64,000 bases of DNA from Promethearchaeota archaeon (GCA_013375475.1 JABXKD010000001.1:32001-96000); one strand, 5' to 3'; shown: positions 53,137 to 57,194, counted from the stretch's first letter. Numbers and translations are program-made. Notes: a model not told the origin generated them from the sequence alone.

Positions 53137-55110
53137 CTATACATCTTTTAACTTACAGAATAACTCTGCAAAAATTGAATCTTTTCGATAAAAAACCGGA
53201 GGCTGACCTATAGGAGCTTTGACTTTTTTAACACCTTTTTTAAATTCCTCCCCTGACCAGATATGAATCCATACATCGTCCGGAAAATACACTTCCCCTT
53301 CGCTTGAATTCGGTTTTATTATAGGTGCTACCAACAAATCTTGACCGAAAAGATATTGATACTTGAGTTTGTGAAGTTCAGGATCGTTTTCGTAATGAAG
53401 ATAACAAGCTCTAATAGGTGGAAATCCCTTTTCGACATACTCATTTGATAAATGTTGCATGTAAGGTTTAAGATGAGTAAATCTCTGACTCATTTTCGCA
53501 AAGAATTCAAGAGTTTCGTCATCAGAATCAAATTGCCAATTACCGACGGGTCTGATGCTTTCGTGAGTTCGCATTGTCGTTGTAAATACCGCCATTTCAG
53601 CCCATCTCATGAAAATCTCTTTATCTCTAGAGATATGCTCCAATGCGTGGAAACCACCAATATCGTAATGAAAATATCCAATTCCACAAATTCCTAAGGA
53701 TATTCCCGCAGCAATTACCGTTGCTATTCCATCATGAACGCTCCAATTAACAAGTTGATCTCCAGCCCATACTTGTGTCGTATAACGCGATATATGAGAA
53801 TACCCTGCTCTACTGAAAAAGACTATATCACCTAATCTCCCCGCCTCCTCTACTGCCTCTAAATTAGCTTGTGCGAAGATTACAGGGTATTTATTGTGAA
53901 ACTCCTTGGGGTCTTCTCCAGAGTGCAGCGCTACATAAGTAGGAAGATATTCTCCGTAGTCAGCCATCCAGCCAGATAATCCGATATTTATCATATTCTC
54001 CTTTATTACGCTTTTTAACCACTCAATAGTATCAGGATTGCTGAGATCTAGCATAATTTTATCTCCACTATCAGTTACGATAATAAAGGTATCTCCATTT
54101 TGTTCCTTTACGCATAAACCTTTTTCAATAGCTTCTCCGTATTGATTTCCGTTAGGAGCAAGCATAGAATTAATATATCCCAGAAATTTAACCCCCTCGC
54201 TATTAAGTGTTCTTATAAACGACGGTAAATCAGGATATAACGTATCATCGTATTTCCAGTTCCATAATAGCCTTTTAGTCGGACCAATTATGTTCACTCC
54301 TTGCCAGTCTTGGCACCATACGGCCCCAACATTAACTCCTTTCTCTAAACATTTTTTTACTTTTTCCATAACAACATTCTTTCCACCTTGTATACCTAAC
54401 CAAACTCCATCGTAAACCCATTCAGGTAATTTTGGTTGCCTCCCTAAATAATTTGAAAGGCGAGATACGGTATCAAGAGCAGTTTGGTACTTACCAATTA
54501 TAATTATATCCGGAATATTCCAGAAGTATAATTCGTGGTAATCAGGATGAGTGAAATCAAATATTGCGTAGCACAAACTTTCACTATGGAGGTAATAGTT
54601 TTCTGAGGATACAAAGGTTGGTTGAGGAAAATAAGTAGTATACCAATCTCCCGTAATTGGAGGATCACCTCGTCCCACACCTTGCTCTTCAACCCATAAA
54701 GGGACTTTTTTTCCTTTTAAATTTACCTCAGAAAATTGTTCTCCACATCCATATATTGCTTCGCTTTTATTTGCTCGTATTTTAAGCCAAAATCTATTGA
54801 TGTCCGTATTTTCAGATGAAAATTTAATTTCAAGGTGGTCATCCACTATGTTACATGAGACTTTTAGTAAATCCTTTTGCGTTCCGAGCGTTATTTCGAT
54901 TTTGTTGTCTTCTTGACTCAAAATTTCGTACTCTCGAAGTTCTCTTTCAGTCACATCTTTTTCTTTTATTTTAAAATGACCGTGATGTGATTTGAACTTT
55001 CCTTTCCCACTCCCAACTTTTACACACGAATTTTGGCGGGAATGCTCCAAAATAAAATAGTCCTTATAATACAGCCTAAAACCGCTATCTATTGATTCAA
55101 TTTTTAACAT
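53137..55110 (-). CDS. yihQ: GH31 glycosidase, probable sulfoquinovosidase (YihQ/SqvC-like)
   Basis: YGCGEQFS..NLKG, EQGVGR, WCQDW.G.......KRLLWNW, GWMADYGEY, WAGDQ, RTHE. Confidence 0.82.
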   Translation of the reverse strand: MLKIESIDSGFRLYYKDYFILEHSRQNSCVKVGSGKGKFKSHHGHFKIKEKDVTERELREYEILSQEDNKIEITLGTQKDLLKVSCNIVDDHLEIKFSSENTDINRFWLKIRANKSEAIYGCGEQFSEVNLKGKKVPLWVEEQGVGRGDPPITGDWYTTYFPQPTFVSSENYYLHSESLCYAIFDFTHPDYHELYFWNIPDIIIIGKYQTALDTVSRLSNYLGRQPKLPEWVYDGVWLGIQGGKNVVMEKVKKCLEKGVNVGAVWCQDWQGVNIIGPTKRLLWNWKYDDTLYPDLPSFIRTLNSEGVKFLGYINSMLAPNGNQYGEAIEKGLCVKEQNGDTFIIVTDSGDKIMLDLSNPDTIEWLKSVIKENMINIGLSGWMADYGEYLPTYVALHSGEDPKEFHNKYPVIFAQANLEAVEEAGRLGDIVFFSRAGYSHISRYTTQVWAGDQLVNWSVHDGIATVIAAGISLGICGIGYFHYDIGGFHALEHISRDKEIFMRWAEMAVFTTTMRTHESIRPVGNWQFDSDDETLEFFAKMSQRFTHLKPYMQHLSNEYVEKGFPPIRACYLHYENDPELHKLKYQYLFGQDLLVAPIIKPNSSEGEVYFPDDVWIHIWSGEEFKKGVKKVKAPIGQPPVFYRKDSIFAELFCKLKDV

Positions 55111-55135
55111 TTACCAATAACCAGAATATAGTTTA

Positions 55136-56452
55136 TTATCGAATTACATTCCATCCTTTAATTTTAGCGAAAATTTCTAAGGGTCGTATATAATCATCGT
55201 ACACGACAGATATGTGGTGAGCTATTCCATTATCAATTATTTTCTTTAATACATCTTTTACATGATCTTCAAAAACTGCTTTAGCGTAGGTACCCTTCAA
55301 TTTTTTTTCCATTGGAATAACATTTCCCTTCTGTAAAAAGAGACGGTACTCTCCCGGAGCGTAATCGATTCTTAAAAACGACACTTGCCCAGATTTCATA
55401 ACAAAATCTGCAGTCACTCCTTTTCCTCCAGCAAAATAAGGTTCCAATGATCGATTACATTTTTCATCCCAGAGATTACAAGGAGCCACGCCGCAATGCC
55501 ATAATAAAGCAAAATTTTCTTTTAAATCTACTTGAGAAAAATCCGCCAAGTAGGGAGTTTTTGCTCCAATTGCAGAGTGTGCAACCATGGATAGGCTTCC
55601 AAGTATATCCCCTTCGCATGTGAGTATTTTTCCTTCAGCTTGTAATACGGACATTGCCGCGCAAGGAGCAATACCGAAATCGGTGGCAAATTCGGGCCAA
55701 CACCTTATAGCGAGAGCATCTAATTGATTAGAATTCATAAATTCATTAAATTTACTCGTAAGCTCTGCAACCTTACTTAATTGTTCTTCAGAAATTGATG
55801 ATACATCGAAGATTTTCTTAATCTGTTCTTCTCTTTCTTTACTCTTAGTTGTCTCAACTTCAAATTTATAAATTTCATTTAATTCGAAATGATCTATGAG
55901 AAGTCCAAGCTCTCTATATAAATCCAATTCATCTACATCAAGATTAAAAAAGCCCTTAGCCCGGTATCCTATAATCCCTATACGTTTAGTCGCAAAAGCT
56001 TTTATTATGCGTAGCGAATCCAACCAGTCCTCATCGATCCGATCTCCAATTACTACATGATAATTTTTTACACCCGCTTTATATAAATTGCTTGAATTTA
56101 AATTTATGCCACATACCGAGTTAAGGCGGATTTTTCCCCCATCGTACGGTAATTCATCCAAACCCCATAGCAAAATCGGTTTTTGAATTACTTTGTTTAA
56201 TTCTAAAATCAAGTGGCCTAAAGCAAAAGTTCCGCTAATACAAACTAATCCATCAATACCTTTAGATTTTAATTCTTGGGCTGCCGTTTGTGCGTCCTTG
56301 ATTTCAATTACTAACTCTGAACTGATTTCCCAATCGATATTTTCAATCTTTTTTAATTCGACTTGAATTTTTTTAAAAATATCTTCAGCAGCAATATAAT
56401 CGAACGTCTTCCTCGCTATACAAACAACTCCAACTTTAATTTTTTCCTTCAT
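55136..56452 (-). CDS. L-fucose/arabinose-isomerase-family protein, probable sulfoquinovose isomerase (SqvD/SftI-like)
   Basis: ARKTFD, GTFALG, RLNSVCG, AIRCWPEF, CEGD, LWHCG, HH; lies between transaldolase and GH31. Confidence 0.75.
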   Translation of the reverse strand: MKEKIKVGVVCIARKTFDYIAAEDIFKKIQVELKKIENIDWEISSELVIEIKDAQTAAQELKSKGIDGLVCISGTFALGHLILELNKVIQKPILLWGLDELPYDGGKIRLNSVCGINLNSSNLYKAGVKNYHVVIGDRIDEDWLDSLRIIKAFATKRIGIIGYRAKGFFNLDVDELDLYRELGLLIDHFELNEIYKFEVETTKSKEREEQIKKIFDVSSISEEQLSKVAELTSKFNEFMNSNQLDALAIRCWPEFATDFGIAPCAAMSVLQAEGKILTCEGDILGSLSMVAHSAIGAKTPYLADFSQVDLKENFALLWHCGVAPCNLWDEKCNRSLEPYFAGGKGVTADFVMKSGQVSFLRIDYAPGEYRLFLQKGNVIPMEKKLKGTYAKAVFEDHVKDVLKKIIDNGIAHHISVVYDDYIRPLEIFAKIKGWNVIR

Positions 56453-56525
56453 AAATTATCACCAAGATGGTAATTTTAAATAACTTTAACAGCTATACAG
56501 ATCTACTCAAGGAGACGAATTTGAG

Positions 56526-57194
56526 TTATAAAGATCCTAACTCCGTATCATCCCACGCGTCTGTGAATATCTTTAATCCTCTATCAGTGAAGGGATGGTA
56601 AAAACTGTCCTTATAAACTTCAAACCCGGCAGTCACTATATCAGCCCCAATTACAGCAGCATCTACGATTTGTTTTCCATTCCTAACTGCGGCAACGATT
56701 ATCTCTGTTTCGAAACCATAATTCTGATACATTGTTTTTATATCACCTATTAAACTATAACAATCTACTCCAGCACTTTCTTGCCATCCGATAAATGGCG
56801 AACAATACGCGGCTCCTAATCGGCCTACCTGAAGAGCTTGGGATGCCGTAAACACTAATGTTACGTTTACTTTTACTCCCTTCTCAACAAGAGTTTTTGC
56901 TGCAACCAATCCCTGCTCAGTACAAGGAATTTTGATCACGAAATTTTTCGATAAACACGCAATCTCAGTTGCACCCTTTATCATATCCTTCGCTTCTTTC
57001 AAATGAGGATCAATCTCAACAGAGATCGGGAAATCGATATCTTTAAAATCCTCCGCAAATTCTTTTACAACCGTAAAAAAAGGTTTACCCGAACTCTTAA
57101 TATGTTTTGGATTGGAAGTAACTCCATCTATTTTCCAATTTTCCAAGGCATATTTAATCTCGTCTATTTTAGCACTATCCAAGAAATATTTCAT
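56526..57194 (-). CDS. Transaldolase family protein, probable sulfofructose transaldolase (SqvA/SftT-like)
   Basis: MKYFLDSA, DGVTSNPKH...SGKPF, VIKIP, NVTLVF, SPFIGW, AAVRNGKQ, H.FTD.GL..F..AWD. Confidence 0.8.
   Translation of the reverse strand: MKYFLDSAKIDEIKYALENWKIDGVTSNPKHIKSSGKPFFTVVKEFAEDFKDIDFPISVEIDPHLKEAKDMIKGATEIACLSKNFVIKIPCTEQGLVAAKTLVEKGVKVNVTLVFTASQALQVGRLGAAYCSPFIGWQESAGVDCYSLIGDIKTMYQNYGFETEIIVAAVRNGKQIVDAAVIGADIVTAGFEVYKDSFYHPFTDRGLKIFTDAWDDTELGSL

Follow-up and report, generated by a model that had tools for sequence, protein, structure and literature searches.

A probable sulfoquinovose catabolism locus of the sulfofructose transaldolase type in a Promethearchaeota archaeon

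Sulfoquinovose (SQ) is a sulfur sugar that abounds in the membranes of plants and algae, with a production put at about 10 billion tonnes a year in abstracts of papers on it. The closest described systems are the sft clusters of Bacillus aryabhattai SOS1, B. megaterium and Eubacterium rectale (encoding SftA, SftT, SftX, SftG, SftI, SftR or SftD, and SftE). According to passages of the reports on these clusters (PMC7491151, PMC11968277), SQ is converted to sulfofructose (SF), and SF plus glyceraldehyde-3-phosphate yield fructose-6-phosphate and sulfolactaldehyde (SLA); the clusters also encode SftX (DUF4867), SftR or SftD and a TauE-type exporter, and that of B. aryabhattai has a sugar:cation symporter (PMC7491151). 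A passage of a 2026 review states that no sulfoglycolysis has been characterised in archaea, and our literature search found no report of sulfoglycolysis genes or SQ catabolism in Asgard archaea. In this study, a 64,000-nt stretch of DNA of a Promethearchaeota archaeon (referred to below, at its full length, as the window) was analyzed, with emphasis on positions 53137-57194 of its minus strand, where homologues of an SF transaldolase (SF-TAL), an SQ isomerase and a GH31 sulfoquinovosidase (SQase) are encoded. Judged from its sequence, this locus quite probably specifies SQ catabolism through a sulfofructose transaldolase, i.e. the sulfo-TAL/SFT core, in a Loki-type Asgard archaeon. The pathway is a known one, described so far only in bacteria; what is new is the archaeal domain, together with some variant features.

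The genes concerned form a tight block of five on the minus strand, with spacers of 17, 73, 73 and 25 nt:
58497..59312, minus strand: alpha/beta-hydrolase, 271 aa (Pfam Abhydrolase_1), opening the block 17 nt before the MFS gene
57268..58479, minus strand: MFS transporter, 403 aa (Pfam MFS_1, 124 bits), 73 nt upstream of the transaldolase gene
56526..57194, minus strand: SF transaldolase homologue (SftT / BmSF-TAL type), 222 aa (Pfam TAL_FSA)
55136..56452, minus strand: SftI-like aldose-ketose isomerase, 438 aa (Pfam Fucose_iso_C; NCBIfam NF048012)
53137..55110, minus strand: GH31 sulfoquinovosidase homologue (YihQ/SftG type), 657 aa (Pfam Glyco_hydro_31; NCBIfam NF007746)

An earlier reading of the sequence (the original prediction) had reported three co-oriented, closely spaced genes for a transaldolase, a fucose-isomerase-family protein and a GH31 enzyme. 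Open reading frames (ORFs) and Pfam matches gave the same order and exactly the same limits, with 25 nt between the GH31 and isomerase genes and 73 nt between the isomerase and transaldolase genes, and all of the motifs quoted at that time were found in the translations (CQDW...KRLLWNW, WMADYGE and WAGDQ in the GH31 protein; NPKH, SPFIGW and RNGKQ in the transaldolase). The operon consists of five genes rather than three, the MFS and epoxide-hydrolase-like genes being the additions. It shares with the bacterial sft clusters the core trio (SftT-type transaldolase, SftG-type GH31, SftI-family isomerase) and a sugar transporter. The proposal that SQase, SQ isomerase and SF transaldolase together represent the sulfo-TAL/SFT core was upheld by homology, signature residues, predicted fold and gene linkage and, with co-occurrence and host assignment added, is well supported. 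The similarities of the three proteins to their reference structures or model, with E-values between 3e-71 and 3e-196 as given below, go well past what chance would produce.

The transaldolase matched PDB 8bc3 ('BmSF-TAL') over residues 1-217 with 306 bits (E 1.5e-90), against 169 bits for the best ordinary transaldolase (1vpx) and about 70 bits for FSA (fructose-6-phosphate aldolase), which agrees with the earlier view that it resembles SqvA/SftT rather than generic Tal/FSA enzymes. Like the solved BmSF-TAL (PDB 8bc2-8bc4), which it matches over its whole length, it carries SPF(I/V)GW, RNGKQ and NPxH motifs. In an alignment of 86 rows (the window protein, 80 homologues from public genomes and five ordinary transaldolases of the same genus), H31, W137, A169 and Q175 (window numbering) were shared by 81/81 SF-TAL-type rows and the PDB sequence aligned with them, while the five ordinary enzymes read L, R, S and H at these columns. 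The corresponding motif contrasts between SF-TAL-type and ordinary enzymes are NPKH/NPTL, SPFIGW/SPFIGR, A169/Ser and RNGKQ/RNSRH; there are 33 columns in which a residue common to 90% or more of the 81 SF-TAL-type rows differs from the one that is invariant in the ordinary enzymes. The two groups are separated in the tree by a branch with support of 100. D6, E60, K88, T112 and F134 are kept in all 86 rows, in both groups, and we take D6, E60, the Schiff-base lysine (in VIKIP), T112 and F134 to be the class-I transaldolase catalytic set. The columns at which the SF-TAL rows differ presumably hold the phosphate-binding residues of ordinary transaldolases, and from the replacement of these residues we infer that the H31/W137/A169/Q175 columns would form the sulfonate pocket. 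As had been pointed out, the first basic sulfonate residue is a lysine, not an arginine (NPKH in the window protein versus NPRH in the solved B. megaterium enzyme, PDB 8bc3). The variable residue of NPxH is Lys in 28/28 Asgard rows, and the 53 bacterial rows read Asn (32), Lys (12) or Arg (9), so this position varies naturally.

The GH31 protein passed the NCBIfam equivalog model NF007746 (PRK10426) with 790.6 bits against a cut-off of 553. It matched end to end PDB 8r56 (657 bits, E 3e-196), E. coli YihQ (5aed, 626 bits; entitled 'ALPHA-GLUCOSIDASE YIHQ | Sulfoquinovosidase') and E. rectale SftG (6pnr, 613 bits), while the next GH31 class (YicI) gave only 145 bits. Window residues Q241, Q267, R280, W283, D384 and D451 align with YihQ Q262, Q288, R301, W304, D405 and D472. 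Hence the catalytic Asp pair is kept (D384 in WMADYGE and D451 in WAGDQ), as is the Q/E-R-W part of the sulfonate motif (Q267, R280 and W283), in line with the YihQ-type pocket and catalytic motifs claimed originally. In passages of the structural literature, the YihQ pocket is given as Arg301-Trp304-Tyr508(H2O), with Tyr508 making a water-mediated sulfonate contact (PMC8006165), and the sulfonate motif of GH31 SQases as Q/E-RWY (PMC12780224). An alignment of 55 GH31 rows (loci L013-L092) comprised 14 Asgard sequences and 41 bacterial ones from SF-TAL clusters. The R301 column reads Gln in 28 of the 41 complete bacterial rows and in 8 of the 14 Asgard rows, and a 29th bacterial row with Gln (L070) has an ambiguous residue at another motif position. 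Because this column is so often Gln, the published Q/E-RWY motif fails for many cluster-linked GH31 proteins.

The isomerase matched NCBIfam NF048012 'sulfoquinovose isomerase' (SftI) over its full length (240 bits, E 3e-71); a sequence search of the PDB returned no solved structure for it. An AlphaFold model built from 36 homologues (pLDDT 89, pTM 0.91) resembled L-arabinose isomerases (4r1o/7chl; TM 0.86, E 1e-25 to 1e-26) and L-fucose isomerases (TM 0.77-0.81; 1fui 0.77). E280, D304, H319 and H413 are invariant across the 36 sequences; from their spacing and from the AraA numbering, we take them to be equivalent to the AraA metal ligands. Fold, family and gene linkage suggest that this protein converts SQ to sulfofructose. 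The isomerase tree contains two deep types, both found in SF-TAL clusters; that of the window occurs in the Asgard rows, in Caloramator, in one spirochaete and one planctomycete, and in some gut Firmicutes, and is a deep sister of the gut-Clostridia type.

A candidate for a second SQase lies 3.2 kb beyond the operon start, on the opposite strand and beyond two Fe-S genes:
62545..63765, plus strand: GH188 (SqgA-type) NAD-dependent sulfoquinovosidase homologue, 406 aa (Gfo/Idh/MocA; PDB 8qc3)

This protein scored 213 bits (E 6e-62) against PDB 8qc3 (ArSqgA) and 201 bits against 8qc2 (FlSqgA), both of which are NAD-dependent GH188 sulfoquinovosidases of the SqgA series 8qc2-8qc8 (PMC10755693). 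The residues named for ArSqgA, catalytic Lys107, Tyr136, Glu189, His193 and His321 and sulfonate-binding Arg166, Leu170 and Lys172 (PMC10755693), are identical at all eight positions in the phmmer alignment of the window protein to 8qc3 (the chain numbering of which is offset by 13, as verified on five motifs). GH188 and GH31 SQases have been described as complementary in distribution, with 'a small number of archaea' mentioned (PMC10755693), whereas at this locus both types occur within 10 kb.

The following route is predicted, with the same chemistry as in the bacterial sft pathway. Sulfoquinovosyl glycerol or free SQ would be taken up, candidate carriers being the MFS transporter of the operon and a nearby GPH symporter. 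Judging by homology and by the residues of its active site, the GH31 enzyme would free SQ, perhaps assisted by the GH188 enzyme, and the SftI-like isomerase would turn this SQ into 6-deoxy-6-sulfofructose. By similarity to the solved enzyme, the SF transaldolase would use its Schiff-base lysine to transfer the C1-C3 unit onto glyceraldehyde-3-phosphate, giving fructose-6-phosphate, which would enter glycolysis, and 3-sulfolactaldehyde.

A scan for the transaldolase with one genome per species gave 116 relatives, of which the best 80 were kept. Among these 80, 27 came from metagenome-assembled genomes (MAGs) with Asgard titles or titled 'uncultured archaeon' (63-87% identity), and the nearest bacterial sequences were from Caloramator (70%). 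The titles are Promethearchaeota, Promethearchaeia, Promethearchaeum, Promethearchaeati, Hermodarchaeota, Hodarchaeota and 'uncultured archaeon', and all of the named Asgard groups belong to the kingdom Promethearchaeati (NCBI). Within the fetched flanks of the 27 loci, many of which end at contig borders, the isomerase gene was found in 20 and the GH31 gene in 14; the transaldolase-isomerase-GH31 trio is also present in Caloramator and many Clostridia. In a sample of 40 relatives (24 of the same genus and 16 of the same order), the SF-TAL type was found in 12, accompanied by the isomerase in 12/12 and by GH31 in 11/12, the remaining genome (G030) having a GH188 homologue instead; among the relatives without the SF-TAL type, the isomerase occurred in 2 and a GH31 match in 5. 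GH188 was found in 2 of the 40. These counts come from kin that are not independent and carry no statistical claim. One same-genus genome (G023, genus g1) has the isomerase type (66% identity) and GH31 (50%) with only an ordinary transaldolase (39%), and may use another downstream route or be an incomplete assembly. Across the phylum, the SF-TAL type was detected (E <= 1e-80) in 38 of 400 sampled genomes, that of the window included, and in 18 of 85 genera; 34 of the 37 other genomes belong to the window's own order. The Asgard-wide survey called for by the original prediction therefore shows a recurring cluster. The genome G171, which belongs to the same order and is closed as a single contig of 6.0 Mb, carries an SF-transaldolase block (L105, G171:C1:1772500-1792400), composed of transaldolase, YihU-like reductase, aminotransferase, AEC transporter and isomerase genes and abutting Vps4, ESCRT-II and EAP30 genes; the GH31 homologue of G171 (51% identity) is found 1.2 Mb away from this block.

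Trees were built with a quick IQ-TREE run and SH-aLRT support from the 80 best matches to the Asgard query and five outgroups, after removal of ORFs covering less than 85% of the query; as a consequence of this design, bacterial diversity (Bacillus, E. rectale) is under-sampled in them. The Asgard rows formed one group in the transaldolase tree (28 rows with SH-aLRT 88, 25 of them in a core supported at 97), and Asgard groups were likewise obtained for the isomerase (17 rows, 99) and GH31 (14 rows, 100). All three of these groups are placed next to bacterial sequences, and none is nested within them. The earlier suggestion of a probable horizontal acquisition did not find backing here: because the Asgard sequences make up a group of their own beside the bacterial ones, not inside Firmicutes, the trees point to neither a direction nor a donor. 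They agree with a single ancient presence in the lineage and later loss or spread within Asgard archaea.

The points that weigh against this assignment concern (i) the GH31 pocket, (ii) the isomerase, (iii) the place of the transaldolase in the genome, (iv) the sulfolactaldehyde step and (v) the purity of the bin; the main doubts come from the Tyr-to-Phe change in GH31, the divergent isomerase and the lack of a linked SLA enzyme, all of the enzymes being known from sequence. YihQ Tyr508 is matched by Phe487 in the window GH31, gap-free in both phmmer and MAFFT alignments, a replacement unnoticed in the original prediction; of the four motif residues, three are thus present, as are the two catalytic Asp, and the water-bridging Tyr is replaced. 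The full Q-R-W-Y set occurs in 0/14 Asgard GH31 rows (six with Y->F, six with R->Q and two with both), and Phe occupies the Tyr508 position in the window, in its five closest Asgard orthologues and in 8/14 Asgard rows in all. The isomerase remains below the NF048012 cut-off (240 versus 700 bits) and shares just 23-27% identity with the gut-Clostridia type. A second transaldolase-family gene is missing from the window genome, so its transaldolase might serve ordinary pentose-phosphate metabolism; as the sole one, it could possibly serve central metabolism in addition. Features of this kind would suit genes acting on a different sugar, with GH31 cleaving a non-sulfonated or differently substituted 6-deoxy/6-modified hexoside and the isomerase and transaldolase processing that sugar, or with the transaldolase as a plain housekeeping enzyme, and it is in accord with this reading that eight of the 24 same-genus genomes have only an ordinary transaldolase (about 40% identity) and none has both types. 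We nevertheless regard such a different substrate as unlikely. The sulfonate-pocket Arg280 and Trp283 of GH31 are kept, R-to-Q variants are common in bacterial sft-type clusters too, and His31, Trp137, Ala169 and Gln175 are as in the solved SF transaldolase and in every cluster-linked homologue. Ten of the 24 same-genus genomes have no transaldolase match at all, so the enzyme is dispensable in them, and a second, unrelated SQase type with all of its sulfonate-binding residues is encoded 3.2 kb from the operon start. The isomerase score is put in proportion by a control in which 7/7 isomerases from bacterial SF-TAL clusters also fell under the cut-off (175-425 bits), so this cut-off is narrow. 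Rather improbable, too, is that the pathway is real but recycles SQ glycans or lipids of the archaeon itself instead of phototroph sulfolipid. It would account for the presence of the genes in deep sediment, and passages of two papers (PMC12890257, PMC7491151) report SQ in the N-glycans of some archaea; in passages of a glycoproteomic study of a cultured Asgard archaeon (PMC11284389), however, SQ is named only for the Sulfolobus control, and the importer-type GPH/MFS genes, together with the glycosidases, sulfatases and esterases that neighbour related loci, look like scavenging.

With respect to the purity of the bin, its contamination amounts to 6.41% (CheckM-type), and alongside an archaeal SSU (small subunit) rRNA gene on contig C222 it includes a bacterial SSU-tRNA-tRNA-LSU (large subunit) operon on a separate 16.9-kb contig (C263), so that some bacterial DNA is contained in it. 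This, and the fact that the pathway is known only from bacteria, would be expected if the operon were that of a contaminating bacterium, its DNA either mis-binned or fused with an archaeal contig as a chimera, which we consider very improbable. The window lies within the longest contig of the bin (C111, 170.8 kb), and the operon stands between archaeal genes, C111 encoding a Taw2-type wyosine enzyme, a HerA/Rad50 repair block, an HVO_0163-type regulator and a thiolase above the PRK06064 cut-off with a DUF35-type partner (archaeal). Word depth over 44001-64000 was determined from the contigs of four marine-sediment runs (X1-X4) and was even throughout, in the operon as in the flanking DNA (X1, 45.5-61.7 across the 30 bins; X2, 13.2-34.7). 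Contigs bridge the MeaB/GH31, transaldolase/MFS/hydrolase and hydrolase/Fe-S gene junctions, including contigs of X4, which comes from another study; only X4 is independent, because X1 may be the source sample and X2-X3 are from the same study. RNA data gave no holder of the operon, which carries no information about its expression. Given these archaeal flanks, the even depth, the 27 related Asgard or 'uncultured archaeon' loci among the best 80 of 116 and the transaldolase block adjoining ESCRT genes in the closed genome, contamination is excluded as far as the data show. The host is a Promethearchaeota (Loki-type Asgard) archaeon from marine sediment; the Asgard affiliation given originally thus stood, on the archaeal markers of the contig and on the nearest relatives of all three genes, which are in MAGs titled Promethearchaeota.

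As regards the fate of sulfolactaldehyde, the archaeal cluster departs from the bacterial sft clusters in having no SLA enzyme, TauE exporter or GntR regulator; its epoxide-hydrolase-like leading gene and the Phe in place of Tyr508 in GH31 are further differences. No SLA reductase (SftR, YihU-like) or dehydrogenase (SftD) was found at 45.7-64 kb of the window or over the following 14 kb, and no TauE-type exporter is near the locus (four TauE genes are located elsewhere in the genome). For DUF4867 (SftX), PF16161 had no match at the locus or elsewhere in the genome, and none in the control genomes either. B. megaterium SqvD, one of the proteins that the original prediction named for comparison, is the DUF4867 protein according to passages of PMC11968277 and therefore not the isomerase. 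The single HIBADH-family gene of the genome, on contig C278, was not supported as an SftR; it has 32% identity with the cluster-linked reductase in a related locus (L021), YihU ranks 17th among its PDB matches, and it looks generic. Elsewhere in the genome there are two aldehyde dehydrogenases and 13 AOR-family matches, one of them (C111:103.7-105.5 kb) about 8 kb beyond the GH188 gene, and the C278 enzyme, either of the aldehyde dehydrogenases or one of the 13 AOR-family genes are candidates for handling sulfolactaldehyde. The release of C3-sulfonates proposed earlier thus lacks a dedicated reductase or dehydrogenase in or near this cluster, although five related Asgard loci (L021, L024, L032, L042 and that of G171) have a YihU-like reductase gene beside the transaldolase. 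Because of this arrangement in its relatives, excretion of 2,3-dihydroxypropanesulfonate (DHPS) is suggested; a passage of Frommeyer et al. (PMC7491151) gives the reductase-in-cluster pattern for strictly anaerobic, DHPS-excreting Clostridia.

The locus would represent a domain-level extension of sulfoglycolysis, with the genes in roughly one in ten of the Asgard genomes sampled, and it suggests a specific organic substrate for archaea of which the physiology is known mostly by inference. A further idea, which we put forward tentatively and hold to be possible at best, is that Loki-type Asgard archaea are primary fermenters of phototroph SQ in marine sediments, retaining the C3 half in the form of fructose-6-phosphate and excreting DHPS or sulfolactate as a syntrophic currency, this being an old lineage-wide trait and not a recent import. 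The C3-sulfonate would then be a so far unrecognised currency for sulfite- or sulfonate-respiring bacterial partners, the feeding of which is put forward purely by inference; such cross-feeding would link Asgard archaea with sulfur-respiring bacteria and bear on syntrophy models of the origin of eukaryotes. Direct tests are feasible, since these are small, soluble enzymes and the genes are present in closed or near-closed genomes within the same order.

Other genes of the region were also inspected:
49164..50579, minus strand: GPH-family glycoside:cation symporter, 471 aa (Pfam MFS_2, 188 bits; TIGR00792 gph, 118 bits)
63731..64000, plus strand: start of a ThrC-like PLP (pyridoxal phosphate) enzyme (427 aa, extending past the window end; NF006050)
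42989-44116, minus strand: Fe-S paralogue
59492-61180, plus strand: Fe-S paralogue
61277-62482, plus strand: Fe-S paralogue
L093:6661-7899, beyond the window: Fe-S paralogue
L093:13687-14853, beyond the window: Fe-S paralogue
L093:14909-16111, beyond the window: Fe-S paralogue

The MFS transporter of the operon is a candidate SQ or SQ-glycoside importer or sulfonate exporter; its best NCBIfam match is weak (D-galactonate transporter subfamily, 55 bits), and the closest related locus (L013) holds a copy with 80% identity. The GH31 gene is followed by a 424-nt gap and then, on the same strand, by MeaB, a creatininase-like gene, the GPH symporter (2.6 kb downstream of GH31) and a type-B carboxylesterase. 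The symporter is a candidate SQ-glycoside importer with an SftA-like role; GPH paralogues lie near the transaldolase in the window and in 7 of the 27 other Asgard loci, and in a genome of the same family (L106, G198:C3:526000-545900) five of them in a row flank the transaldolase-isomerase-GH31 trio. The alpha/beta-hydrolase, a copy of which also adjoins the transaldolase in L018 (66% identity), was considered as a sulfolipase and rejected, its closest solved relatives being epoxide hydrolases (5ng7, 214 bits).

On the GH188 side, the stop of the GH188 gene is overlapped by the ThrC-like gene (L093:2732-4015; NF006050 557 bits, cysteate synthase TIGR03844 only 93 bits), which itself overlaps a gene for a YeiH-family 'putative sulfate export' transporter (L093:4009-5271; PF03601/TIGR00698). 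These three may make up a second SQ- or sulfonate-related operon, the link to SQ being uncertain. Located 5-10 kb beyond GH188 (L093:7951-12505, minus strand) are a CE15 glucuronyl-esterase-like gene, a LarA-like nickel-pincer isomerase (group 22, above cut-off) and an AOR gene. At 15491-21910 of the window (plus strand), genes for a HerA-like helicase and a Rad50-like ATPase, with two unannotated ORFs and with all scores far under the family cut-offs, make up a block for double-strand-break repair of archaeal type.

For the pair of Fe-S genes that separates the operon from the GH188 gene, Pfam shows only ferredoxin domains, and the automatic name 'putative DsrA fragment' of a neighbouring Atlas cluster has no Pfam match behind it. 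They belong to six paralogous proteins of 375-562 aa encoded on one contig, with conserved CxCR...C...C and CFCCxCCC motifs and a C-terminal 2x[4Fe-4S] domain. A model from the alignment of the six paralogues was weak (pLDDT 69), with an SCP2-like N-terminus (3bn8, E 2e-4), and in the Atlas these proteins form an Asgard-only cluster.

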